From NCBI GenBank assembly GCA_963668625.2, contig CAXXKA010000001.1, positions 352,001 through 416,000 of the forward strand: a stretch of 64,000 nucleotides of DNA, written 5' to 3'. Below, in pieces: positions 53,001 through 64,000 of this stretch. How positions within the stretch are numbered: the stretch's first letter is position 1; every line of letters starts with the position of its first letter. Source of the DNA: an uncultured candidate division Zixibacteria bacterium (GTDB lineage Bacteria > Zixibacteria > MSB-5A5 > UBA10806 > 4484-95). A model generated the notes under the pieces. The model saw only the letters and a list, made by a program, of their open reading frames with translations. It made no database searches and was not told where the DNA came from. A program made the position numbers and the translations under genes.

Positions 53001-55303
53001 TCACGGCCGGCAACTACACCCCGACCATTACCATAGCCGGGACGCAGAATCAGCGCTCCTATTCGGCTAATGTGCCAACCGAATCTATCCTCATATTACA
53101 ACCGGGTGAGGTCAGGATGGATTCGCTTTATACGGTCGCGCCGAACTCGCCCAAGGTAAACGCCAATCAGGAATTTACCATTCACGGCTTTATCAGTAAC
53201 CTGGGTAACGAGATAGTGGATTCGGTTCATATAGTGATGTCCACGGATGGCGGCTCGACATTTAATGACACTGTCGATGTCGGTACGATTAACAGTCTTG
53301 ATGGCGCGGCGTTCGATTATACCGTAACGGCGGCATCATCGCCGAATTTGTTAGAGGCATTTTACGTTGAGATAGAGAAAGCGGTAAACAGGCTATCACA
53401 CGATGATTCGCCTATAGCCACGCCTTTAGATAACGGCACGGTAGCTATTATTGAAAATGACGCGATATTCGAACTGGATACATTATATCTCACGGATGAT
53501 TCACTTTCCACCGGGCAGGCATTCACCGTTTACACACGAGTAGTGCACACCGGCAGTGAAAGCTACGATGGCACGAACCAGTTGATTATTGATCTCGGCG
53601 GTGATAGTGAATATTTAGTAGCCGATTCGCTGCCCCGCGATTTCTCGATCGGCCAGCTCGTATCATGGAACGTGACCGCACCCGAAACAGAGCGAAACGC
53701 CACGACAGTCACGGTATCGTTTAACGGCGAGATTGTCGATTTAAACGACAGCACAACCGCGCTGGGGCCGGATTCGGTGTTGAATTCGACGATTCAGGTC
53801 ACTTCAGAGGCCGCTATTGCGCACAGGCCGATGCTTGTCTCGCCCTCGGGGGCTACCGATAGCGTGCTCTCGACAGGCCAATCACTGGTAGTATCCGATT
53901 CGTTATTCCCGACCGGCAACGTGGCCACGAGCTACGGCCGTTTAACCTTGCCGGAGGGATTCTCCAGTTCCGATCCGCTAACTCAGGAATTATCAGGAAA
54001 CGCGGTAAACTGGTCGATACTCGCCAGCGAGCAGGAAAAAATAGATTCGCTGGGATTCGAGTGCTGGACTATCGATTCCAATACCGGCGATATCGCCTAT
54101 AGCGATACTACCTGGATACGAATAGAGGTGGAGAGCAAAGCCACGCTGTCGCTAAACAGCACCGTGACCTCGCCGCCTTCGGCTATGGATAGGATTATCT
54201 CACCCGGAACCGAATTTACGCTTGAAGCTACCGCCTCGAATATCGGCAATGCTGATGTTGGCACGGGCGAGCTTACATTGAGCATTGACACCGATAGGTT
54301 TACTGTCACCGAGGATCTGACCCGGACATTCTCGGCCGGTACGCCGGTTGTCTGGACTATATTCTCGCCCGAGGAACAAATTTTGGATGGTGTGGTGGTT
54401 TCCGTGTTGATGCCAACAGTGGCTAACGATTTGAACACGGGGCTTCCCTCGGTAGTATTGAACGATTCCTCCGGCATGGAGATCATTATAAAACGCGAGC
54501 TGCCCGATCTGGTGCTTCAAAATCCTACGCCGCTTGGCGGAGCCGCCGTAGCGGGTATGCCGTTGGATATTTACCGTCTGACATTCCATAACTCTATAGA
54601 TATCACCAACGATCAGATCGGTATGTACACCTTCGGATTCAGGCTCAAATCGGATGGTGTCAGGATCAGTCCCTCGGATGTTGTATCAGCCTCGGTGCTA
54701 ACTATTAATGATGAGCAGTATGCCGGCGTGTTAAACGATTCGGTTGTGACTTTCAGTATCGATCCGATTTACATAATCGAGCCGGATTCCTCGGTGCTTT
54801 TAACTATCAATGTGACTCCGGTTGCGAACCCCACGTATAGATCGTTTAGTGTAAACTTCCAATCCTCCGATATTTTCGCGAGGGTGATTATCGGTGGTTC
54901 GGCCGAGCAGCAGATTGAGGTCGTATTGCCGGATGGCGAGGATTTCCTTTTGGATGGCGAGACGCTGGCAACCTTAGAGGGCAGTTTCCTGACTTCGACC
55001 AAGGTCAATCAAAATCCGTATATAGCTGCGAACGGGAACTTGAGTATCGGTTATATACTCGAAAATGACGCCACGCTAGATATTACTATTTACAATGTCA
55101 CCGGGGATGTTGTCTGGGAGTATACCGCTAATTCGACCAACGGTTACGGTACTGCCGGGCCTCACTATGATGATGACGTCGCTATTCCCTGGGATGGTAG
55201 AAACTCCAGGGGTGATAAAGTGCTCAGCGGCGTGTATTACATTTTCGTTACAAATAACGCTACCGGGCAAACAACCAATTTGAAGGTGGCTGTAGTATGG
55301 TAA
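47006..55303 (+). CDS. Giant (2765 aa) Ig-like repeat surface protein/adhesin with FlgD-Ig/T9SS-type C-terminal domain
   Basis: Signal peptide; alternating ~100-aa repeats; C-terminal NQNPY...IYNVTGDVV...WDGRNSRG..VLSGVY...KVAVVW. Confidence 0.85.
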   Translation: MQSLSLKAILIISLIAVLTVPAVADIYYSEIVFSDDIDNQIEFRITPSDYQAISAEINGRMWPVSQFSDNEYSVTGFGKLNSGQPIKVLYEGYDVNSLDKVSLELIGTNGDISYNRFPGLALDLIPLQSVTDTLRSGIAGDSDAHKIGFDISTNQIMEKGEIWITFEAGFDAGGLVSLDSISYSDDDPANNGSEPTITSVSVITRTVILKLDSGTPASPNSRVNVEIKPVNNSIIAGDYSVTVQTLDSLGALVHIPTSSNAFILDPDVLNSVAVTPGGDMNIPSDSIVVFSAAGHDQYGNAIDGLTYTWAITVDSCGTINNGTFQAKKLGDCYITATTGGFADSSGVLTVEASDLDRFAMTGYPASVQAGQVFPIPIALTAYDVNDNIIYDLADSIYFFSSDDSAAFTYDSDNWLDIDTGQVSIPGNNFTLKLAGSQTITVTNGTQSTTSSSITVSSTLIDDFSFSAVGDQTAGVSFNLSVTGAVDQYGNPASGNVIVDDVVGGNSPDGDPPVLNNITVTNGSGQAGQLLTNAVASTLEGVGGSATVQTNSFTVNPGVVGRLILTGYPDEATAGEQFTSDPLVTVKDIFGNLKTNYTGTIHFKGPETVPSPYTFVTPHAGSHTFPDNQFAFQTAGLKRLYVFNADSSLADTSSAIDVSANIISSFSFTALGSVTAGSPFSISVSNALDQYGNSASGTITVTDSSGAGNSPDGSSPSLNDIIVNNGSGSANQILVDVGAAIIRGISEASTVQAVNITVNPAAGAQLVLTDTPDTITAGLDFSTQSIDPTVTVLDSYGNIATGYGGTVSFNNIENRDGPHTFIPADLGVYRFDGGNFSFEAAGARKIIATDGVLADTSSIVEVYPAAITSYDLNAPPSVVAGTAFTLSVANAVDQFSNDASGTVVITDSLGAGGSPDGSMPSLNNIEVSGGVGSAQQVLVDSVAAARLKGAVNGVVRGTSDITVAPANANELVLSNYPDTITAGQAFPSPANDPLVTLKDAYGNLATTYDGTVTLSNADSPDLDHDFVAGHDGTFAFDGDLIVFNTGGWRTLIVSDDTFGLADTSSPIQVLGTSSISSFDITAPSDADAGAAFSVNISNARDQFNNLTSGTVTIQAVSGAGNAPDGSSPSFHDVSITNGVGSASQVLVLTGTARLRGVAGSFADTTGNITVSPGTPDKIEITDCPESVTAGNGFSTDPIVTIYDSYENIATDYTGEVTFSGIATTHAPYTFIGGDAGQHTFPGSSFIPEESGIKRVIVTEDQASLVDTSEQFTVYPNVIAGFDFGAVGGATAGVPFSLSVSNAVDQFDNAASGTITVVGYTGAGNAPDGSVPSFNNIAITNGSGSGDQVLVLTGNARIRGFSGSAADTTSTFTVAPGAFGELRITNTPDTVTAGSNFSTDPVVTSYDLFGNLATNYTGTITFDGINQVPSDYPFVGGDNGQHSFLGSGFSPHTAGFRRLIVRDDAASISDTSNPIQVYPDTINSFSFAAIGSQTAGVPFVLTVSNAIDAYGNNTSGVIDIDTVGSLNSPNGDSPIINDINVTDGSGSAQQTLVLTGGSVQLRGSYSTLEVTTNTFAVNPGVLGELDVAVSSPQISGVPFTAPSTITAIDVFGNDKTNFSAAGNNITITASNGGDMADNILDEDSDFTNELADLNALGVTYSGAGGQVTFTAAAQSGITGESNVVQIGSIRADDISLDLRQVVSGDTARGTVRVTNLGNVAATITDIIIKTDPEMFSPSYTPPLGSVPGGTDQTYDFKFVVNTLSSGSYPLTMIVNANYSSIITSDTLIGRDTLIIVTESNLTDISGSLTPDTISSGSDYSLAFEVINNGEAALNIADSSYITFTDGSETYMAELAQNSYVGAGDQTYLYFNSASVNAAFIPNSYSVSFQIYGYDIHRVIDDLITITDDIMVQSPSNITYLANLTPLTLLTGAEVRFSARVSNSAQADLIINPDQTKITFSDVNENQYIAYIDTAAAYHVEVIEGGGDTTLTFVRELLLPGFTAGNYTPTITIAGTQNQRSYSANVPTESILILQPGEVRMDSLYTVAPNSPKVNANQEFTIHGFISNLGNEIVDSVHIVMSTDGGSTFNDTVDVGTINSLDGAAFDYTVTAASSPNLLEAFYVEIEKAVNRLSHDDSPIATPLDNGTVAIIENDAIFELDTLYLTDDSLSTGQAFTVYTRVVHTGSESYDGTNQLIIDLGGDSEYLVADSLPRDFSIGQLVSWNVTAPETERNATTVTVSFNGEIVDLNDSTTALGPDSVLNSTIQVTSEAAIAHRPMLVSPSGATDSVLSTGQSLVVSDSLFPTGNVATSYGRLTLPEGFSSSDPLTQELSGNAVNWSILASEQEKIDSLGFECWTIDSNTGDIAYSDTTWIRIEVESKATLSLNSTVTSPPSAMDRIISPGTEFTLEATASNIGNADVGTGELTLSIDTDRFTVTEDLTRTFSAGTPVVWTIFSPEEQILDGVVVSVLMPTVANDLNTGLPSVVLNDSSGMEIIIKRELPDLVLQNPTPLGGAAVAGMPLDIYRLTFHNSIDITNDQIGMYTFGFRLKSDGVRISPSDVVSASVLTINDEQYAGVLNDSVVTFSIDPIYIIEPDSSVLLTINVTPVANPTYRSFSVNFQSSDIFARVIIGGSAEQQIEVVLPDGEDFLLDGETLATLEGSFLTSTKVNQNPYIAANGNLSIGYILENDATLDITIYNVTGDVVWEYTANSTNGYGTAGPHYDDDVAIPWDGRNSRGDKVLSGVYYIFVTNNATGQTTNLKVAVVW

Positions 55304-57111
55304 GAAAATATATTATAATACTCATACTGCTTTTCACCTCGTTATCGTTCGCCGGTAACGGTGGGTATCGTTCGCCGTTTGCGGTAGGATTCGGCGCTCG
55401 TCAATTGGGAATGGGCGGCGCGACCGTAGCAAATATTAAATCCTCGAGCTCGATATTCTGGAACCCGGCCGGATTGGCTAATGTCGATAGATCCGAGATA
55501 CAGCTTTTTCACATGTCACTGTTCATGGATACCCGCTATGATTTCTTCGCCTTAGCTTACCCGACAACCTCGCTGGGCGCGTTCGGTATCGGTGTCGGCG
55601 ATCTGTCCTCGGGCGAGTTTGACAGGATAGAGGACTATGTCACGATCGGGACTTTCTCCAGCCGCCAGGATATTTTCATGTTCGGTTACGGCTCCGAACT
55701 GTTCCGGGGCTTATATACCGGTATGACTATCAAAGGTGTGCATTACGATATCGCAGGCTATAAAGATTCAGGATTCGGTTTCGATGTCGGTATGATGTAT
55801 AATTTCGGTTTCATGAAAGGCTTGTCTGTCGGTTTCAAGGGGACCGATCTGGGGGGGCCGAATATCAGGCTCAACTCCACCGATCAGGGTTACCCGACTG
55901 CCTACCGGGGCGGGCTGGCTTACGAGACTCATCCCGGTGACAAACATAGCGTTTTAGTTAATTTCGATTATGAGAACACCGAAAAGCTCGGTTCTGATAT
56001 CTACGTCGGGGGAGAGTTCGGGTTTAATGATATGTTGTTCTTACGGGCCGGTTATATGGCTGATAAGCTGACGTTCGGAAGCGGTCTGTCATATCATGGG
56101 TTCAATATAGACTACGCATTAGCCTCCATGTCCGACCTGGAAACTTCGCATCGTATCTCGGTGAGCTACGCTTTCGGTGGCTCGGTTCGGGCCAAGCGTG
56201 ATTCACGAGAGAGCAGGATCGCCGAAAGACGTTTGAACGATTACAAAGATGAGCAAGAGTCCGAGCGCAAGAGTAAGCTCGATAAAGAGCTGGAAAAAGC
56301 AGAATCGCTGGAGGACGAGGGTAAAACCTACGAGGCCATCGAATCATACTATCGTGTTCTGGCTCTGGATGTGCAAAACGAGAAAGCCTCGAATAAAGTA
56401 ACAGTATTGTTCGAACGAATCCGTCAGGATATAGCCAATGATGCCGGTAAGGGCTATACGGATCAACTTATGCAAAGCCAGATAGAACTGGGTGATAGCT
56501 ATTTTGAACGGAAACAATACAAGGACGCCGAGGAACAGTACAACCTGGCTTTAATTCTTAATCCTGAAAATCAATATGCAAAAGACCGTTTGGCCGAGAT
56601 CGAACAGATCAGCCTGGATGAAATAGATGCATTGAATAATTCGGCCAACAGCCAGATAACCAACGGCAACTACGACGCGGCTCTGGAGTCGGTCAGCAAA
56701 GCGCTGGCAATCGATCCGAATAACAGGGTCACGCTGGCAGGACGAGATAGGATCATCAATTTAGTCGAGTCCTCTAAGTATTTGAATGAAGCCCTGAAAT
56801 ATTTCGATCAGGCCGATTATACCAGGTCGGCAGCTCTAGTCGATTCCGCCCTGGCGAGCAACCCTAATTCCGAAGGCGCAAAAAGCTTAAAACGTCAACT
56901 GGCTAAATATACCGCTGATGTTACCACGCTCGAGGATATCAAGAAAAACAATGACCACTGGAGCACATATCTCCAGGGCATGGAAAAATACCAGGCGGGT
57001 GAATATAAAGAGGCGATTAAGCTCTGGCAATCGTTGCTCGAATCATATCCCAATAATCCAAACCTGAAACGGAATATCGAACAGGCTGCCGAAAGAGCGG
57101 CTAATGAGTAA
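55297..57111 (+). CDS. PorV/PorQ-like (UPF0164) outer-membrane barrel fused to TPR domain
   Basis: GFGARQLGMGGA..A, IFWNPAGLA, HRISVSYAF barrel end, then coiled-coil and TPRs; overlaps the adhesin stop. Confidence 0.8.
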   Translation: MVRKYIIILILLFTSLSFAGNGGYRSPFAVGFGARQLGMGGATVANIKSSSSIFWNPAGLANVDRSEIQLFHMSLFMDTRYDFFALAYPTTSLGAFGIGVGDLSSGEFDRIEDYVTIGTFSSRQDIFMFGYGSELFRGLYTGMTIKGVHYDIAGYKDSGFGFDVGMMYNFGFMKGLSVGFKGTDLGGPNIRLNSTDQGYPTAYRGGLAYETHPGDKHSVLVNFDYENTEKLGSDIYVGGEFGFNDMLFLRAGYMADKLTFGSGLSYHGFNIDYALASMSDLETSHRISVSYAFGGSVRAKRDSRESRIAERRLNDYKDEQESERKSKLDKELEKAESLEDEGKTYEAIESYYRVLALDVQNEKASNKVTVLFERIRQDIANDAGKGYTDQLMQSQIELGDSYFERKQYKDAEEQYNLALILNPENQYAKDRLAEIEQISLDEIDALNNSANSQITNGNYDAALESVSKALAIDPNNRVTLAGRDRIINLVESSKYLNEALKYFDQADYTRSAALVDSALASNPNSEGAKSLKRQLAKYTADVTTLEDIKKNNDHWSTYLQGMEKYQAGEYKEAIKLWQSLLESYPNNPNLKRNIEQAAERAANE

Positions 57112-57143
57112 TTAGAGATTCCACATCGGAGAAAATTTAAAGC

Positions 57144-57175
57144 GGGGGTGTTCGATCGAACGCCTCTTTTTTTTT
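57144..57175 (+). terminator. Intrinsic terminator
   Basis: gggggtgttcgatcgaacgcctc hairpin followed by T9. Confidence 0.75.
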
Positions 57176-57468
57176 AGGTGTCATTCAGCACCAAAGAGGA
57201 TATACAAATCTAACCGCAGGCTTATCAACAAAGACGTTTTTTCATTCGGATGCCGGCTACTTTAAGAGCCCGGGGATTCCTGTCGGGAGTATTTTATTGG
57301 TGTTAAAACCGCAGGTATTTAACCTGCTCATCACTACCATCCCAATTGCCGGCAAGATCGAATATAAACAAAACTGATTTCCTGCCGAAAATCTGTAAAG
57401 CATGCGATTCATCTTTACTTTGTGGCTTTTTTCAACTATACTGTAAGTTTATAAGAGAGGGACGGATA

Positions 57469-60400
57469 GTGTTTAAGAAACCGACTGAAATATTCATGAG
57501 TTTCAACGCCGAGGAGAGTATGCTCCCGGATATCAGGAGCTCGATCGACGACACTATCAAAGATCTCGGCCTTAGTTCCAAGGATAAAAACGGTATACTC
57601 CTGGCTATCGAGGAGGCTTGCACTAACGTTATTCGTCACGCTTACCTTTATGGCCCGGGTACGATCCGCCTTAAAATCAGGATGCAGCCAACGCGGGTGA
57701 CATTTTCTATTTATGATAAAGGTCGGCGTTTCGATTTCGATCACACCGATACGCCCGATCTGGATCGTTATATTAAAACCGGCAGGAAAGGCGGCCTCGG
57801 CTTATATCTAATCCGCAAAATGATGGATTCCGTCGATTACTATTCGCGCGGAGATGAGAACGAACTGCGGATGATCAAAGAGGTCAAGCCGCGCAAGCAG
57901 GCCGTGTTGAAAACGCGGGGCATGACGATCCGCCTGAAATTTGCTATCTGGGCATCGCTGGTGGTATTCGGTATGGTAGCTGCGATCTCCCTGTACTATA
58001 ATCATCGAAATTCAGTCGCTGTTGAAGAACGTTTTTTCGAGGAAGCCCGTAATGTCGCTCAGACAACGGCCTTGAACGCCGCCGATAAAATCGCGGTCGA
58101 TAACGAACTGGAATTGGCCGGGCTGGCTAACTCGCTAATGAACGGTAATCCAAATTTAGCATATGTTACCATAGTCGATGAAAATAATCTGGTCTGGGCG
58201 GATGTTCTCGATCCCTCTAAATTCTACTCGCAATACGCTTACCCGGCAGGCGTGGATTCCTCTCTCGAGGGAGTATTCCAGAAATATGTCAATAGCGATG
58301 GCGAAGCTATTTACCACTTGATAAAAAAAATATCTCATAACGAGCATACTCTCGGGTATGTAAACCTGGGATTCTCCGAAACGGCATTAGGCGATCTGCT
58401 AAAATCCTCACAACACTCGATCCTTCTGTTTGCCTTAATGGGATTGGTTATAGGTTTGACGGCGGTGTACTTGTTGTCGGCTTACTTTGTCAAACCGATA
58501 CAGAAACTCACCGAAGGCGTCTTGAAAATCGGACAGGGCAATCTTGAAGAGGCGCTGCCGGTAGAGGGCGAGGACGAGTTCTCCGAGATAGCGCGGGCAT
58601 TTAACGAGATCACCACCAAGTTCAAGAAAGCCCAGGTCAATGTTGTCGAACAGGAACGTATGCAGAAGGAGATGCAGGTTGCCCAGGAGATTCAGCATGC
58701 GCTACTGCCTAACAGGTTCCCCGAGATCGAGGGTTATGAGTTGGCGGCGGTTTATCGGGCGGCCAAGGATGTCGGCGGTGACTATTTCGATTTCGTCTGG
58801 ATAGACGAAGATACGCTGGGGATAGCGGTGGCGGATGTCTCCGGTAAAGGAGTGCCGGGCTCGCTGGTCATGACAATGATTCGTACGGCTATCAGGCTCG
58901 AATCGCGCGGTAACCAGAACCCCAGTGAGATTCTGGCGAAAGTTAACGATTTCGTGGCGGAGGATGTCAAGAAGGGTATGTTCATCACGATATTCTTCAT
59001 TATTCTCGACTCTAAAAGTCGCCAGATATCGTTTGCCTCGGCCGGCCATAATCCTATGATATTGTATCGAAAAGATTCCGATAAATGCTATTTTCTGAAT
59101 CCCAAGGGCATGCCGTTGGGATTAACCCTGCCGGATAATATATCATTCGGCGGTGATCTCCAGACCGACAGGCTGAAGCTGAAAAAGGATGATATGCTGG
59201 TGATTTACACCGATGGTATCACCGAGGCGATGAACACCCGCTCCGAGCAGTACGGTAACGATCGGCTGATCGATTTTATACGCGATAACGCTCATTTAAC
59301 CCCCGATGACTTCGCCAAGATGCTCGATAAGGACCTGGCTCATTTTACCGGCAACGCTCCTCAAAATGATGATATCACTCTGGTTGTGGTTAAAGAGAAA
59401 ATCATGGCCGATGAGATCATTCTGGAAAAACGCAAGCAACTGCTTATGATGGTCGAAAACGAGGGTGTTCCGATAGCCGATGCTTGCAAGGAGATGGGCG
59501 TTTCGGTTTCGACATTCTATAAATACCGTCGCCGCTGGAAACGCGAGGGCGCGGCCGGCTTGCTGAATAAACGTCTCAGGGCGGATGAGGGAATCAAACA
59601 GTTGCCGTATCAGGCGCGCAAGGTTCTGCTGGATGTCGTCCGTGAAAATCCGGAATGGGGCGCCTCGAGACTTCAGCAAAGAATGGCCGAAATAGGCGAA
59701 AGCTTCACTGTCAAGAATGTTTATGATGAACTGGTTAATATGAGGCTCAATACCAAGAAACTCCGCCTGGCTTATGTTGAAAGGGTTGGCCATTTAAAAC
59801 CCGAACAGAAGGAGATGCTCGAAAAAGAGATATTGCGCGACGCCCAGAAAGAGGTAGATCGCTCCGAGTATGTCGATGGCCTTGAGAAAAATATCGAGAA
59901 ACGAGAGGTTGAAAAGATAACCCAGGAAACAGGCCGGGTAATTTCTCAGTTGAAAAAGTTAAAACCGGCACTGGAAAACGATAAAGTATATTCGGAGATT
60001 TCGAAAGAACTTGAAAAACTAGAAGGCGGCGAAGAGATTGCCGGATTGTTCAAGACGATCATGCGGAAAGTGGATGATACTATTCCCACCGCTGCTGAAC
60101 CGCAAACGCCGGTTTCATCACCCGAACCAGAGGCTGAAACAGAACCATCGAAGCCAGAGGCGGTGCCTGTACCCGAGCCTGAACCAGTACCTGAACCGGA
60201 GGCCATAAATGTATCGGCCACCCCGGAGGCTAAATTCGAGGAAGAGGTATCCGAGCCCTTAGAGATCAGACCCGATGAAAAAGTGTCCGAACCTGGGGAA
60301 ATGCCGACAGTAAAAAGAGTGGAGGTCGCTCCTCAAAGTGATGAGAAGATTGAGATAAATTTGAAAGCGAAATCCGCGGATAAAGATGATAAAAAGGAAA

Positions 60401-60471
60401 AAGAACAAAAATCAGTTTTCGATGATATGGATGAATACGAAAGAAAGCTCTTAAAGAAATTCAAGAAATAA
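57469..60471 (+). CDS. Membrane partner-switching regulator: RsbW-like kinase + sensor + HAMP + SpoIIE/PP2C phosphatase + transposase-like HTH
   Basis: EEACTNVIRHAY, DKG, GGLGL (HATPase); 2 TM; KPIQKL..DEFSEIARAFN (HAMP); VGGDYFD, ADVSGKG, SAGH, YTDG, DDIT (PP2C); ACKEMGVSVSTFYKY HTH; start GTG 57469 behind GAGGG. Confidence 0.85.
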   Translation: MFKKPTEIFMSFNAEESMLPDIRSSIDDTIKDLGLSSKDKNGILLAIEEACTNVIRHAYLYGPGTIRLKIRMQPTRVTFSIYDKGRRFDFDHTDTPDLDRYIKTGRKGGLGLYLIRKMMDSVDYYSRGDENELRMIKEVKPRKQAVLKTRGMTIRLKFAIWASLVVFGMVAAISLYYNHRNSVAVEERFFEEARNVAQTTALNAADKIAVDNELELAGLANSLMNGNPNLAYVTIVDENNLVWADVLDPSKFYSQYAYPAGVDSSLEGVFQKYVNSDGEAIYHLIKKISHNEHTLGYVNLGFSETALGDLLKSSQHSILLFALMGLVIGLTAVYLLSAYFVKPIQKLTEGVLKIGQGNLEEALPVEGEDEFSEIARAFNEITTKFKKAQVNVVEQERMQKEMQVAQEIQHALLPNRFPEIEGYELAAVYRAAKDVGGDYFDFVWIDEDTLGIAVADVSGKGVPGSLVMTMIRTAIRLESRGNQNPSEILAKVNDFVAEDVKKGMFITIFFIILDSKSRQISFASAGHNPMILYRKDSDKCYFLNPKGMPLGLTLPDNISFGGDLQTDRLKLKKDDMLVIYTDGITEAMNTRSEQYGNDRLIDFIRDNAHLTPDDFAKMLDKDLAHFTGNAPQNDDITLVVVKEKIMADEIILEKRKQLLMMVENEGVPIADACKEMGVSVSTFYKYRRRWKREGAAGLLNKRLRADEGIKQLPYQARKVLLDVVRENPEWGASRLQQRMAEIGESFTVKNVYDELVNMRLNTKKLRLAYVERVGHLKPEQKEMLEKEILRDAQKEVDRSEYVDGLEKNIEKREVEKITQETGRVISQLKKLKPALENDKVYSEISKELEKLEGGEEIAGLFKTIMRKVDDTIPTAAEPQTPVSSPEPEAETEPSKPEAVPVPEPEPVPEPEAINVSATPEAKFEEEVSEPLEIRPDEKVSEPGEMPTVKRVEVAPQSDEKIEINLKAKSADKDDKKEKEQKSVFDDMDEYERKLLKKFKK

Positions 60472-61214
60472 TGCATAAAGTTGCTGTAATAGCCTCTAAA
60501 GGGGGCACGGGTAAAACCACAACCGCTATAAATCTGGCCCATGCTGTTAGTTTGATGGACAAGAAAGTACTGCTTATCGACTGCGATTCCCAGGGCTCGG
60601 CCTCGCTGGCATTCGAGTTAAACGGTGTGCAAGGCCTTTCAGACCTTCTTTTAACCAACAATGTCGATATATATAATGTTAGACCTAACCTGTATCTTGT
60701 TGGCTCGGGCAGGTCTGATATCTATATGGTAGAGCGTTACTTAGCCCAGCAGGGTGAGGCTGATTATCCTCTGGCAAAAGCGTTAAATCGATTTACCGGC
60801 GTAGATTTGATAATTTTAGATTGCTCCCCGTCGATAAATATAATAAATTCAAACATTCTTAATTATGCGGATCATGTCCTGATTCCTGTTTCGATGGACT
60901 ATTTCGCACTGGAGGGAGCAGCTTTAACGCTGAAAGTGATTAAGGAAATTAGTTCGATCAATAAAAAGCAAATCAATGTTTTAGGATATTTATCAACTTT
61001 TTATGATGTCAGGACTAAAATATCAAAACAGATTTTTGCCGAGCTGAACGAAAAATACCAAAATAAAGTATTCGAGACGCCGATAAGAATTAATACACAG
61101 ATTAAGGAGGCGCAAATGCATCGCAAGACAATATTCGAGTTTGCGCCGTACTCTCACGGGGCTTACGATTATTATCGTTTCGTGAAAGAGGCTTTAGCAA
61201 GGTTAGACGGGTAA
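60471..61214 (+). CDS. ParA/Soj family ATPase (orphan)
   Basis: KGGTGKTT, LLIDCDSQ, ILDCSP, YDVRT; TAATG-coupled to the upstream gene; no parB adjacent. Confidence 0.88.
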   Translation: MHKVAVIASKGGTGKTTTAINLAHAVSLMDKKVLLIDCDSQGSASLAFELNGVQGLSDLLLTNNVDIYNVRPNLYLVGSGRSDIYMVERYLAQQGEADYPLAKALNRFTGVDLIILDCSPSINIINSNILNYADHVLIPVSMDYFALEGAALTLKVIKEISSINKKQINVLGYLSTFYDVRTKISKQIFAELNEKYQNKVFETPIRINTQIKEAQMHRKTIFEFAPYSHGAYDYYRFVKEALARLDG

Positions 61215-61218
61215 TTTT

Positions 61219-62013
61219 ATGAGTGATATCAAGATTTCAGTTGACAGTACTACCGCGCCGGGCAGCGATAAAGAGGTTACCGTAATCCGGGTTGACGGTG
61301 TAATCGATACCATGACCGCCACGGAGCTCGAGAAGGTAGCCAACTCTCTTTTATCCCAGAAGAAGTACAATATTATCGTTGATCTGGGCGGTGTGGATTA
61401 TATATCATCGGCAGGCTGGGGTATATTTATTTCCAATATTCGGGAAATTCGCCTCAATGACGGCGATATAAAGCTGGCCCGGATGATACCCAACGTATAC
61501 GAGATTTTCGAACTACTGGAGTTTGACAGTATCCTCAAAGCATTCGATAATCTTGAAAAGGCCAAAGCGGATTTTGCCGGGGCGGTGCCGGCCGAGCAGA
61601 CGAGGGTCGAGATACTCGAGCCAAAACCTGTCACCGTAGGCAAGCAGAGCTCTGATGGATTGGATGCCCAGCTTGAAAGCGGCCGCCAATCGGATGCAAA
61701 TCTCGGTAGCGCTCCCTCGACGGAGTTCGGGGAGAATGCCGGCAATCCTGATTCACCGCGGATAAAAAACGAAAATACCACCGCCGAGCCGGGTGTGGAA
61801 CAGGCTCCGGCAAGCGTTCGGAAATTCGAGGACGCTATAATGGAAATTATCGGTAAAGACCCTTTTCTCAGTGTCGGCGAAATTAAAAATGCCGTGCTGA
61901 AAGAGTTCCCCAGAACAGGTTTTTTGAAGACCTGGTGGACATTGCGTAAATTGGGTTTAAGTTCGAAAAAGAAACGGTTTTATTTTGCCAGAACCCGCAG
62001 GTTTACTAAGTAG
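61219..62013 (+). CDS. STAS anti-anti-sigma protein with C-terminal HTH-like extension
   Basis: G.IDT, DLGGVDYISSAGWG phosphoserine loop; acidic linker; basic C-terminal domain. Confidence 0.85.
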   Translation: MSDIKISVDSTTAPGSDKEVTVIRVDGVIDTMTATELEKVANSLLSQKKYNIIVDLGGVDYISSAGWGIFISNIREIRLNDGDIKLARMIPNVYEIFELLEFDSILKAFDNLEKAKADFAGAVPAEQTRVEILEPKPVTVGKQSSDGLDAQLESGRQSDANLGSAPSTEFGENAGNPDSPRIKNENTTAEPGVEQAPASVRKFEDAIMEIIGKDPFLSVGEIKNAVLKEFPRTGFLKTWWTLRKLGLSSKKKRFYFARTRRFTK

Positions 62014-62038
62014 TACCGTTAATATTATTTAGAAGTGA

Positions 62039-63853
62039 ATGTTGATTTTTTGGATAATACCACTCAGTATAGTTATTGTACTGGCAGTTATAGCAATTGC
62101 CGTTTTACTTGTCAGGTTATATAAAACCACTAAAAAAACCCGCAAGGTAATAAGCGAACTATACGATCTAAAAACGGACTATAGTTTCAGGGATAAGGTT
62201 TTTCAGCTTAATAAGGCGTTTTTCGGTTTCAGGCATGGCAATCAAAGAAAAAGCCAGTTATTGAAAATCGCCGAGGATCTCAAGGCCGGACTTCACCTGG
62301 GTAAATTCATTATTTACTGTTCACAGAGAAACATGATGCAACCCTCGATGGGGATCGGCTACAAGCTCAGAAGTTTAAATCCGTTCAGGATTGATTTCAT
62401 CGATAAGATAATTCCCACGGAGAGCGGCGGCAAGAAATCGAATCGCAGGAGCTTCACGTTCGATCTCGAGCAAATCAAGCAAATTGCGAACACGGGCGAG
62501 TTGGAAATAGCCCCTGTTGGTATGTTCGGTTTCCTATATAAAGCCGGTAATAATCTCACCCTGTTCATCGGAGAGGACCCACGGGGAGAACTGGCGAAGT
62601 ATTGTACCATCGATGAATTCAATTCCGCGATCTGGCCGCTTCTTAACAGTTTCTGCCAGAATTATAGCCAGATCAAGAAGAATCAGGACAAGGCAAAAAC
62701 ATTGCAATCGCAATTGAAAAACGCACAGACCGAGCTAAGCGGACTTTCACGTAAGCTGAAATATAAATCTATCGATCTGCGTTCGTTTTATAAAATTTCC
62801 AATGAGCTTTTTTCGAATTTCGATGAAGCTCAATTGTTTGATTCGCTGATAAATTCTATAGACAGTGTCTTAAAACCCGCCAATATCGCTATAGTCGTTC
62901 CCGATCCCGATAACAGGGAGTTTTTCCGAATCGCAGCGGCCAAAGGCAAATTGAATCCTGATATGAAAAAGCTGAAATTCCCGGTTGATGATCATATCAG
63001 GAAGCTTCTAAAAACGCGCAAACAGGCAATATTACTGCCAATATTAAGCTCCGGCTTACCTGATGATAATCCGTTTATAGAGATGACTTTAACTCATGGT
63101 TACCTGGTTATGGAGAGATTGGAAGCCGATTCGGAGATAAAAGGTTTGGTGTTAATCGGCGAAAAATCGGATGGTCGTAATTACGAGGATTCGGAACTGG
63201 ATATTTTCTCGACGATTTCCAATATGGCCTCCTTAGCCATGAACAATTTAAAACAGTACCACGTAATAGAGAAAATGTCGTACACTGATTTTCTGACGGA
63301 GGTTTACAACTACCGGTATTTCTACAAACGTCTTCGTGAGGAGATATTTCGCGCTAAAAGATTTGACAGGATGCTGGCATTAGTGATATTTGATATCGAT
63401 AATTTCAAATCGTTTAACGATACCTACGGTCATCAAGCCGGTGATGAGGTTTTGCGAAATCTGGCACGGCTGGTCACCGATAGTGTACGAGCGATCGATA
63501 TCGTAAGCCGATATGGTGGTGAGGAGTTCTGTATTATCATGCCTGATACGGGCTTTGCCAACTGTTTGATATTAGTCGAACGATTGAGAAAAATGATTGA
63601 GGAATATAAATTTAGGAGCGACCTTGTCGATGAAGGTTATAGTATCACAGTGTCGATCGGAGGAGCGATTTACCCTGTAGATGCTCAAACACCTGATCGA
63701 TTCATATACTGTGCCGATATGGCTTTGCTCAAGGCAAAACAGGATGGCAGAAACCGATCGATGATGTTTAATAGTTTAATGCTTGAGGATGAGGCTTTAG
63801 TCAAAGGCTCTCAACAACAATTAACGGATATGAGGATTTATGAGGATTTATAA
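62039..63853 (+). CDS. Membrane-anchored GAF-GGDEF diguanylate cyclase
   Basis: N-terminal TM, coiled coil, GAF, TDFLTEVYN, DIDNFK..NDTYGH, RAID I-site, RYGGEEF. Confidence 0.92.
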   Translation: MLIFWIIPLSIVIVLAVIAIAVLLVRLYKTTKKTRKVISELYDLKTDYSFRDKVFQLNKAFFGFRHGNQRKSQLLKIAEDLKAGLHLGKFIIYCSQRNMMQPSMGIGYKLRSLNPFRIDFIDKIIPTESGGKKSNRRSFTFDLEQIKQIANTGELEIAPVGMFGFLYKAGNNLTLFIGEDPRGELAKYCTIDEFNSAIWPLLNSFCQNYSQIKKNQDKAKTLQSQLKNAQTELSGLSRKLKYKSIDLRSFYKISNELFSNFDEAQLFDSLINSIDSVLKPANIAIVVPDPDNREFFRIAAAKGKLNPDMKKLKFPVDDHIRKLLKTRKQAILLPILSSGLPDDNPFIEMTLTHGYLVMERLEADSEIKGLVLIGEKSDGRNYEDSELDIFSTISNMASLAMNNLKQYHVIEKMSYTDFLTEVYNYRYFYKRLREEIFRAKRFDRMLALVIFDIDNFKSFNDTYGHQAGDEVLRNLARLVTDSVRAIDIVSRYGGEEFCIIMPDTGFANCLILVERLRKMIEEYKFRSDLVDEGYSITVSIGGAIYPVDAQTPDRFIYCADMALLKAKQDGRNRSMMFNSLMLEDEALVKGSQQQLTDMRIYEDL

Positions 63854-64000
63854 GTTAATAATAGCCATATTCGCGGTCTTGACCGTTACTGTATCGGCCC
63901 AGGATGACCAGGCATACAATATCGGCATCGATGATGTCTTGAGCATTACGTTCTGGCAGGAGCCCGATCTTAATTCCGATGTCAGGGTGAGAAACGATGG
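63840..64000 (+). CDS. Polysaccharide biosynthesis/export (Wza/SLBB-type) protein, 5' part only
   Basis: Manual translation MRIYKLIIAIFAVLTVTVSAQDDQAYNIGIDDVLSITFWQEPDLNSDVRVRNDG fits the Poly_export Y.IG..D.L.I..W..PDL...V.V..DG pattern. Confidence 0.8.
   Translation, partial: MRIYKLIIAIFAVLTVTVSAQDDQAYNIGIDDVLSITFWQEPDLNSDVRVRND

Follow-up and report, generated by a model that had tools for sequence, protein, structure and literature searches.

What does a helix-turn-helix (HTH) module of the kind that heads transposases do inside a membrane-bound kinase/phosphatase? This question is raised by a locus in a 64,000-nucleotide stretch of DNA from an uncultured candidate division Zixibacteria bacterium (contig CAXXKA010000001.1, positions 352,001 to 416,000 of the forward strand); this whole stretch is called the window below. 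The gene concerned, here termed KP (57346..60471, + strand), encodes a membrane kinase/phosphatase sensor and is a single uninterrupted open reading frame (ORF) of 1041 residues, counted from a TTG at 57346. Its domains are arranged in the order RsbW-type kinase, sensor, HAMP, PP2C, two-part HTH, helical stretch, Pro/Glu-rich stretch and conserved C-terminal end. In the window, as in the Zixibacteria-type loci described below, KP is followed by genes for a ParA ATPase, a STAS protein and a GGDEF protein; the locus encodes kinase, phosphatase, phospho-substrate and diguanylate cyclase together. A sequence-only reading of the window had described the segment behind the PP2C domain as an IS481-type transposase DNA-binding region that was exapted as an output or localisation domain. 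The explanation we favour, with a probability of roughly one half, is binding of DNA or of the nucleoid by the HTH module, which would place the enzyme beside its STAS substrate, with a ParA ATPase docked to the C-terminal tail adding an ATP-dependent link to the nucleoid.

The segment lies at 59413-59830, in frame and directly after the PP2C domain, and translates to the 139 residues (690-828) that the sequence-only reading had quoted. Searched alone against Pfam, it matched all three kinds of HTH family expected from that reading above their cut-offs: HTH_28 (E 2.5e-10, 40.7 bits, cut-off 25), HTH_29 (E 4.5e-11, 43.1 bits, cut-off 28.1) and HTH_32 (E 1.1e-8, 36.0 bits, cut-off 33.7), and HTH_23 as well (E 2.6e-11, 43.4 bits, cut-off 24.6). 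A further family, LZ_Tnp_IS481, matched weakly (E 1.6e-3, 19.1 bits, cut-off 22.2). In the whole ORF the HTH_23/28/29 matches cover about residues 695-743 and HTH_32 covers residues 723-792. An AlphaFold2 model of residues 686-835, built from a 29-sequence alignment, has a mean confidence (pLDDT) of 87.6 and consists of two helical bundles joined by a low-confidence linker (model residues 59-64, pLDDT <50) and followed by one more long helix. From Pfam and the model together we delimit HTH1, of the HTH_23/28/29 type, to residues 688-740 (59407..59565, +), with helices at model positions 3-19, 25-32, 36-49 and 51-55. HTH2, of the HTH_32 type with three helices plus a fourth, occupies together with the next helix residues 755-834 (59608..59847, +; model positions 70-82, 88-97, 104-113, 119-129 and 134-149). 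The third helix is the usual recognition position in HTH folds, and in each bundle it holds invariant Arg, Ser, Thr or Tyr residues; the invariant residues of HTH1 are S35, Y40, Y42, R45, G50, G53 and L54 (alignment numbering). The region is basic, with a net charge of +7 and an isoelectric point (pI) of 9.57 in the window copy and a median charge of +5 over 84 sequences.

In order to judge whether the module is maintained, we looked at its conservation. In a word-indexed search, residues 685-835 matched 60 clusters, all of which (60/60) carry SpoIIE together with HTH_23 at 46-79% identity over the region; their source names are those of Zixibacteria SpoIIE phosphatases. Across 57 long homologues the identity to the window KP is 0.60-0.72 over residues 690-830, with a dip to 0.33 at 770-790, and 0.27-0.45 in the periplasmic sensor region. 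The ratio of nonsynonymous to synonymous substitution rates (dN/dS, Nei-Gojobori) for residues 690-830, a check that had been proposed from the sequence alone, was low: of 15 close pairs, 11 had a finite dS and gave 0.013-0.102, and four, among them both with the window sequence, were saturated. These values are similar to those of the kinase domain (0.005-0.046) and lower than or equal to those of the sensor region. By this substitution pattern the HTH segment is under purifying selection. Judged from its profiles and its conservation, it is a genuine, old and selectively maintained two-part ('paired-like') HTH such as IS481, IS630 and IS3 transposases have at their N-terminus.

A sensor orthologue is present in 151/151 sampled genomes of the phylum. 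Only 32 of them match the HTH segment strongly (E <= 3.4e-28), each once and always inside the sensor orthologue; these are all sampled members of families f1 (5, including the window's own genome), f2 (6), f5 (13), f8 (5), f18 (2) and f19 (1). The remaining 119 genomes gave nothing, or weak matches (E 1e-10 to 1e-4) in transposase-looking frames of 200-440 residues. Thus the presence of the segment in orthologues, which the sequence-only reading had named as a test, has two sides: closer orthologues keep it at 38-80% identity, and some distant ones within the phylum are without it. Seventeen Zixibacteria orthologues had first been classed as HTH-less. In a profile search one of these, L051, proved to have the full two-part HTH (E 3.6e-21), three others (L035, L049 and L050) had only the second bundle (about 1e-9), and the other 13 had no HTH at all. 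In a separate observation, the sensor gene is split into two ORFs in four related genomes (L033, L057, L069, L094); possible reasons are a frameshift, an error of assembly or decay to a pseudogene.

When one genome per species was scanned with the HTH alignment, 80 loci were found. The Zixibacteria gene order (TPR gene, KP, ParA, STAS, GGDEF) is seen in 48 of them (L055-L101, L117), and one, L109, is cut by a contig end. The remaining 31 belong to records whose titles read Gemmatimonadota, KSB1, Krumholzibacteriia, Bacteroidota or just 'bacterium'; these loci keep the TPR gene and a KP of 846-1329 residues with the HTH at 32-41% identity, and 17 of them have a STAS gene. By homology and gene context, the HTH-bearing sensor spans several uncultured phyla of the Fibrobacterota-Chlorobiota-Bacteroidota (FCB) superphylum. 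A FastTree tree of the first 640 residues (89 rows) separates 12 short forms, across a well-supported branch, from all HTH forms detected by blast, with two HTH2-only forms on the side of the short ones. The tree leans towards an old fusion with repeated loss of the HTH. It was rooted at the midpoint, without an outgroup, and its deep forks are weak; this order of events therefore stays unproven.

How close is the module to transposases? For the head comparison we used the NCBIfam transposase models NF033577 and NF033545. The IS481 model (NF033577) aligned to the segment over positions 1-111 of 284 (E 1.6e-16, 60.6 bits; 56.1 bits with the whole KP ORF, against a full-family cut-off of 224), and the IS630 transposase model aligned over positions 1-131 of 299 (E 3.3e-13). 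Both scores lie far under the family cut-offs because KP carries the head only. Similarity to transposase HTH profiles is thus present, as the sequence-only reading had held, and its label 'IS481-type' is apt as a profile match to the head; beyond the profile level (60.6 against 224 bits) it does not hold. No rve/DDE family was found by Pfam in the whole 1041-residue ORF at E <= 1, and no inverted repeats of at least 14 nucleotides occur in 58900-60700. Together with the uninterrupted ORF this bears out the earlier statement that neither a catalytic core nor inverted repeats nor a frameshift follow, and the ORF indeed runs on into a Glu/Pro-rich tail (residues 909-990). The G+C content of the segment (0.53 and 0.43 in 300-nucleotide bins) lies inside the range of the gene (0.41-0.54), with no compositional break.

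The same genome holds a real IS481-type transposase of 383 residues (L004, contig C8, 643-1791, - strand) with HTH_28/HTH_32 as well as rve and rve_3 domains. Its identity to the KP head is only 26% (E 2.4e-3), and the next-best HTH matches in this genome are likewise weak (23-26% identity) and transposase-type. On contig C6 (L002) there is also an IS3-like pair, an HTH_Tnp_1 ORF and an rve ORF with a TAG inside the match, adjoining a phage-type integrase.

The nearest relatives were collected with phmmer: the 139-residue segment gave 862 matches at E <= 1e-3 among 1.84 billion representative proteins. From the matches listed, 149 proteins (leaving out the family member P0040) were scanned against Pfam, 64 at E <= 1e-8, 65 as a tally at E <= 1e-5 and 26 at E <= 1e-6, with further scans of 59 at E <= 1e-18, a threshold too strict on its own, and of 19 at E <= 1e-7. 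The Pfam tables of these 149 nearest relatives, among the matches listed, contain no rve/DDE domain. The tally at E <= 1e-5 covers the 25 commonest families, and about 40 relatives were seen singly only at E <= 1e-18; a weak rve match is therefore possible in these. Among the matches listed, the relatives fall into three classes: kinase-HAMP-PP2C-HTH sensors, many of them extended by TPR repeats or by three fused STAS domains; proteins as long as 2949 residues with two tandem two-part HTHs before a family-2 glycosyltransferase; and short HTH-only fragments. The glycosyltransferase proteins (P0104, P0132, P0141, P0143, P0154, P0160, P0161, P0171 and others) are cellulose-synthase-like. In P0101, P0117, P0109, P0113 and P0118 the three STAS domains are fused right behind kinase, PP2C and HTH, placing enzyme and substrate in one chain; P0117 is named Krumholzibacteriota by NCBI. 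According to these profile searches the module shares its Pfam families with transposase heads, and its closest kin among the matches listed are host proteins. The transposase origin proposed from the sequence alone is not borne out by these relatives, with no rve/DDE domain in the 149; as far as sequence comparison goes, a transposase, and one of the IS481 family in particular, is a plausible ancestor.

A second HTH-type domain is encoded two genes downstream. The STAS protein (61219..62013, +, 264 residues) is of the anti-sigma antagonist type (Pfam STAS, E 4.3e-16; TIGR00377, 57.5 against a cut-off of 53.45). AlphaFold2 divides it into a STAS domain (1-121), a disordered linker (123-197, pLDDT <50) and a C-terminal helical domain. 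Residues S63 and S64 are invariant in 27 sequences, and we take this region to be the phospho-site from what is known of the family. The C-terminal domain (residues 200-262; 61816..62004, +) is modelled as four helices (203-213, 219-226, 235-244, 250-263) at a pLDDT of about 90, a pattern common to this model and that of HTH2 in KP. Pfam assigns this domain to no family, it has no paralogue in its own genome, and BLASTP of the KP segment against the STAS protein found nothing (E 11). When 84 KP HTH regions were compared with 67 STAS C-termini, hhalign gave a probability of 97.2% (E 4.4e-11, 64 columns) for a match covering KP residues of about 756-820; earlier, narrow alignments had given a weak match (31.6%, E 5e-4). 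On this profile-profile alignment, the STAS C-terminal domain is homologous to HTH2 of KP, which the sequence-only reading had not anticipated. It is also basic, with a median net charge of +8 and a pI of 10.7. No description of a STAS-HTH fusion was found in the literature searched, as far as its accessible parts go.

The two HTH2-type domains do not always occur together. The long STAS protein is kept in families f6, f9, f10 and f11, where KP has no HTH; loci that combine a short sensor with a long STAS protein are L036, L037, L040, L042, L047 and L048. In family f3 (L041, L043, L044) KP has no HTH and the STAS protein, of 131-140 residues, has no C-terminal domain.

The third component is the Soj/ParA-type ATPase (60471..61214, +, 247 residues; Pfam AAA_31, E 2.3e-33), the start of which overlaps the KP stop codon. 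Its closest solved relative is Soj of T. thermophilus (1wcv, E 3.7e-50, residues 2-247), followed by other chromosomal ParA/Soj proteins; the NCBIfam BcsQ model aligned over the full length with a score under its cut-off. The deviant Walker A motif KGGxGK[ST] is complete, K10, G11, G12, T13, G14, K15 and T16 being invariant in 40 sequences. The gene is present in 29/29 long-form Zixibacteria loci and in 0/17 other Zixibacteria loci; in the species-level scan it is present in 48/48 Zixibacteria-type and 0/31 non-Zixibacteria-type loci. ParA therefore tracks the Zixibacteria-type C-terminal tail of KP and not the HTH as such.

This tail consists of a non-conserved Pro/Glu-rich spacer and two short motifs. 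The first, K-I-E-I-N-L-K-A (residues 1001-1008; 60346..60369, +), has the consensus I-[DNS]-[ILV] at 1002-1004, and the second, M-D-E-Y-E-R-K-L (residues 1028-1035; 60427..60450, +), the consensus [FWM]-x-x-Y-x-[KR]-[KR]-[LM]. The Ile of the first motif (alignment I21) and the Tyr of the second (alignment Y50) are the only nearly invariant tail columns in 40 sequences, and both take part in the lowest-error contacts of the complex model. For this model we combined the last 60 KP residues with two copies of ParA and two ATP molecules. The runs scored 0.65, 0.70 and 0.64 (overall 0.65) and each of three controls scored 0.00. The score mark of the tool is reached by 116 of 157 solved complexes and by 2 of 215 mismatched pairs, counts that are only a rough guide here because our own alignments and a ligand (ATP) were used. 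The runs share at least 82% of contacts, with a partner pLDDT of at least 65. In the model the contacts of lowest error join tail residues 1002 and 1004 to ParA residues 34, 67, 75 and 107-111, and tail residues 1031-1036 to ParA residues 226-235, an invariant P-Y-S-x-G-A-x-D-Y stretch (P226/S228/G230/A231/D233/Y234). The prediction supports docking of the two conserved tail motifs to ParA, and the ParA-tail link favours a role of the C-terminal extension in localisation or at the nucleoid.

The other parts of KP are those of a partner-switching enzyme. The RsbW/SpoIIAB-type Ser/Thr kinase domain (HATPase_c_2, E 1.4e-25) occupies residues 54-178 (57505..57879, +); the NCBIfam RsbW model matches it with E 2.1e-17, under the model's cut-off. 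Two hydrophobic segments, at residues of about 195-217 and 356-381 as judged by eye from the translation, enclose a poorly conserved sensor region with a weak sCache_3_2 match in Pfam, and HAMP follows (57928..58608, + for the whole stretch; HAMP at residues 377-421, E 1.6e-10). The PP2C phosphatase of the SpoIIE/RsbU type spans residues 488-683 (58807..59394, +; Pfam SpoIIE, E 2e-50). Behind the HTH, residues 835-908 and the Pro/Glu-rich residues 909-990 (59848..60315, +) were delimited by conservation profile and charge: conservation is about 0.4 in the former and 0.06-0.11, with gaps, in the latter, which has a net charge of -17.

Upstream of KP lies the gene of a TPR-containing protein (55297..57111, +; Pfam TPR), which is next to KP in nearly all related loci. 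A terminator-like hairpin 3' of this gene (57144-57167) and a promoter-like site at 57414-57442, about 30-55 nucleotides 5' of a GTG at 57469 and an ATG at 57496, suggest one of these two as the KP start. They lie 41 and 50 codons downstream of the TTG at 57346 and are more likely than it to be the true start; the KP operon probably has a promoter of its own. A giant adhesin-like ORF adjoins the locus. The diguanylate cyclase (62039..63853, +, 604 residues) has a GGDEF domain with a GGEEF motif (Pfam E 1.1e-43; NCBIfam GGDEF E 2.6e-52) and is syntenic in related loci. By eye, an R-A-I-D five residues before GGEEF resembles the RxxD of an I-site, and residues 264-403 give a weak GAF_3 match. 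No sigma factor gene was found among the ORFs at 55000-64000, and no ParB family occurs among the Pfam matches of the six window proteins scanned.

Taken as a whole, the locus fits a membrane partner-switching sensor whose output runs through STAS phosphorylation and the neighbouring cyclase. Within such a system, the HTH module of KP may bind DNA or the nucleoid and would then hold kinase and phosphatase beside the STAS substrate, which carries a homologous, strongly basic HTH2-type domain on what is predicted to be a flexible linker. The phosphorylation state of the STAS protein would act on the neighbouring diguanylate cyclase, on DNA-bound targets, or on both. In the Zixibacteria clade of the window the acidic, presumably disordered linker after the HTH ends in the two motifs predicted to dock ParA, and through the docked Soj-type ATPase the complex could be tied to the nucleoid a second time, in an ATP-dependent manner, so as to be positioned or sequestered. 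Both the KP HTH and the STAS C-terminus are basic, and a nucleic-acid ligand is therefore favoured.

Several points weigh against this proposal. HTH folds can be protein-protein modules, and a protein with two transmembrane segments must bring DNA to the membrane, an unusual arrangement that is known for ToxR and CadC. Foldseek with the HTH model found nothing in the PDB at E <= 0.001, and although VIA-align relates the HTH2 model to DNA-binding winged-helix/HTH domains with Z 5.3-6.6, the tool calls scores of 5-6.6 common for helical models; no specific structural family can therefore be claimed. The weak matches of both tools include the two-part heads of the TnsB, Tc3 and MuA transposases, and a sequence-profile search of the PDB gave no match better than E 0.054. 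No candidate operator or repeated motif was seen near the operon; the upstream region 57100-57520 contains only a 12-nucleotide direct-repeat pair and the terminator palindrome, with no operator-like repeat. Six of the 13 orthologues wholly without HTH retain the long STAS protein, and the two HTH2-type domains are therefore not strictly interdependent. The complex score of ParA and the tail is the model's own confidence. Finally, orthologues outside Zixibacteria carry the HTH without ParA; ParA is therefore uninformative, directly, on the role of the HTH.

Four other explanations have to be considered. KP could be a site-specific membrane-tethered transcription factor in the manner of ToxR/CadC, as the output domain of the sequence-only reading would have it, its HTH reading operators of, for example, the adhesin, exopolysaccharide (EPS) or its own promoter. 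Two-part transposase heads reportedly are sequence-specific binders, conservation is high at the positions of the recognition helices, the weak structural matches include the Tc3 and TnsB heads, and the gene adjoins the giant adhesin-like ORF and the conserved TPR gene. However, 57100-57520 contains no operator-like inverted or direct repeat, and KP already has an enzymatic output on the STAS protein as well as a neighbouring cyclase. The same module also stands before glycosyltransferases and between PP2C and fused STAS domains; a general tether therefore fits better than a single regulon, and we regard the transcription factor as unlikely. Equally unlikely in our view is a docking module that binds no DNA and recruits the STAS C-terminal domain, the cyclase or another partner through its HTH bundles. 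The homology of HTH2 to the STAS C-terminus would suit such a role, as would the three STAS domains fused straight after the HTH in relatives such as P0101 and P0117 and the joint absence of both domains in f3, but f6, f9, f10 and f11 combine an HTH-less KP with a long STAS protein, and both HTH-type domains are strongly basic.

HTH1 might also mimic region 4 of sigma-70 and serve as an intramolecular or decoy ligand of the anti-sigma-type kinase domain. The segment alone does score 28.6 bits with Sigma70_r4_2 (cut-off 25.7, E 1.1e-6), and the sigma-4 domains 2o8x and 3hug are among the Foldseek matches (probability 0.89-0.94, E about 1). Against this, HTH_23/28/29 outscore Sigma70_r4_2 on the same residues and cross-matches inside the HTH clan are expected; the mimic would leave the second bundle and the STAS-borne copy unexplained, and the operon has no sigma factor gene. 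This makes it a very improbable explanation. Least credible of all is that the segment is a recent insertion-sequence scar or a functionless artefact of gene fusion. Its profile similarity to IS481 and IS630 heads and its absence from some orthologues in the phylum would agree with a scar, yet the module is single-copy, syntenic and in frame in 32/151 genomes of six families and in other FCB phyla, at dN/dS of 0.013-0.102. Inverted repeats, an rve domain and a compositional break are all absent, and the genome's own IS481 element is only 26% identical. A recent scar, by which the sequence-only reading would have fallen, fails because closer orthologues retain the segment at 38-80% identity; it is ruled out by the conservation and selection data.

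Our preferred explanation, a sensor held at the DNA or nucleoid by its HTH and, in Zixibacteria, by ParA, would matter in several respects. Partner switching is normally described as acting via protein-protein contacts, with a sigma factor or a cyclase as target. Here enzyme and STAS substrate both carry related HTH domains and one clade adds apparent ParA docking, which implies a link between envelope sensing, the nucleoid and the control of c-di-GMP and adhesion. This suggests a hitherto undescribed connection from envelope sensing to the chromosome; neither the PP2C-HTH architecture nor a link of sensing, nucleoid and c-di-GMP was found in the literature searched, within the portions accessible to us. 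The locus also offers a clear example from bacteria of a transposase-type DNA-binding head that persists in a host protein without the catalytic domain, and the same head is fused to large glycosyltransferases as well. What is new here is that the nearest kin are non-transposase proteins, that a homologous domain is borne by the STAS protein, that the fusion is FCB-wide and that there is a link between ParA and the tail; four residues singled out by the predicted contact, I1002, I1004, Y1031 and L1035, lend themselves to a direct test. A bolder version, which we think rather unlikely, is partner switching on DNA: the HTH2-type domain of the STAS protein would be a phosphorylation-gated DNA-binding output that needs no sigma factor, the HTH of the sensor would bring kinase and phosphatase to the same chromosomal sites, and the tail-docked ParA would couple the membrane complex to the nucleoid in Zixibacteria. 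If true, bacterial signal transduction would have a third basic wiring, widespread among the FCB phyla, in addition to two-component and classical partner-switching systems.

Parts of the arrangement have counterparts in known systems. The heads of IS481, IS630/Tc1 and IS3 transposases have the same Pfam families (HTH_23/28/29 and HTH_32) in the same order, HTH1, linker and HTH2; the KP module differs in having no rve/DDE core and no terminal repeats and in occurring as one strong copy per genome at the same locus. The HptB-HsbR-HsbA-HsbD pathway of Pseudomonas aeruginosa (PMC5085249 and PMC6482189, as far as these sources were available to us) is a partner-switching parallel. The three functions of HsbR, HsbA and HsbD, a PP2C/kinase protein, a STAS protein and a cyclase, are all present in the window operon. 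In contrast to HsbR, KP sits in the membrane as a sensor, begins with the kinase and has a HAMP domain and an added two-part HTH, and the operon adds the HTH2-type domain on the STAS protein and the ParA gene. HsbR reportedly combines PP2C and an RsbW-type kinase in one protein, whose substrate is a STAS anti-sigma antagonist with a link to a diguanylate cyclase; it is said to be soluble, with receiver-domain input and the order PP2C then kinase. A second parallel in P. aeruginosa is SiaABCD, in which a membrane HAMP-PP2C protein, a kinase, a phospho-substrate and a cyclase are encoded in one aggregation-controlling operon (PMC7647112 and PMC8457831, likewise available in part). SiaA is the best NCBIfam match of the HAMP-PP2C part of KP (E 4.5e-26, 91.6 bits against an equivalog cut-off of 700), and the window cyclase matches SiaD (E 1.9e-45, 155.2 bits against an equivalog cut-off of 290). 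The kinase is fused in KP, and SiaABCD is without HTH and ParA. Its phospho-substrate is reportedly SiaC, whereas that of the window is a STAS protein.

On the side of ParA, orphan ParA/Soj ATPases are said to position cargo via an adaptor peptide, as in PpfA-TlpT, McdA-McdB, ParC-ParP and PomZ-PomXY. As in these, the gene of a Soj-like ATPase neighbours that of the presumed cargo, and docking is predicted through a short conserved motif at a disordered end of the cargo. The window cargo differs in being a transmembrane partner-switching enzyme with its own HTH, and its docking motifs lie at the C-terminus and are not obviously basic in every lineage. The arrangement also resembles ParABS in joining a Soj-type ATPase to a partner that combines an HTH with a (predicted) ParA-contacting peptide, which is the functional logic of ParB; unlike ParB, this partner has no ParB-family domain, its HTH is transposase-type, it is a signalling enzyme, and the gene order is partner then ParA. 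A parS site was not identified either, although no search aimed at one was made. Like ToxR and CadC, finally, KP is a membrane-integral sensor with a cytoplasmic domain of DNA-binding type. Those proteins reportedly carry an OmpR-type winged helix at the N-terminus and no enzymatic domains, whereas the paired-like HTH of KP is C-terminal and stands behind kinase and phosphatase domains.

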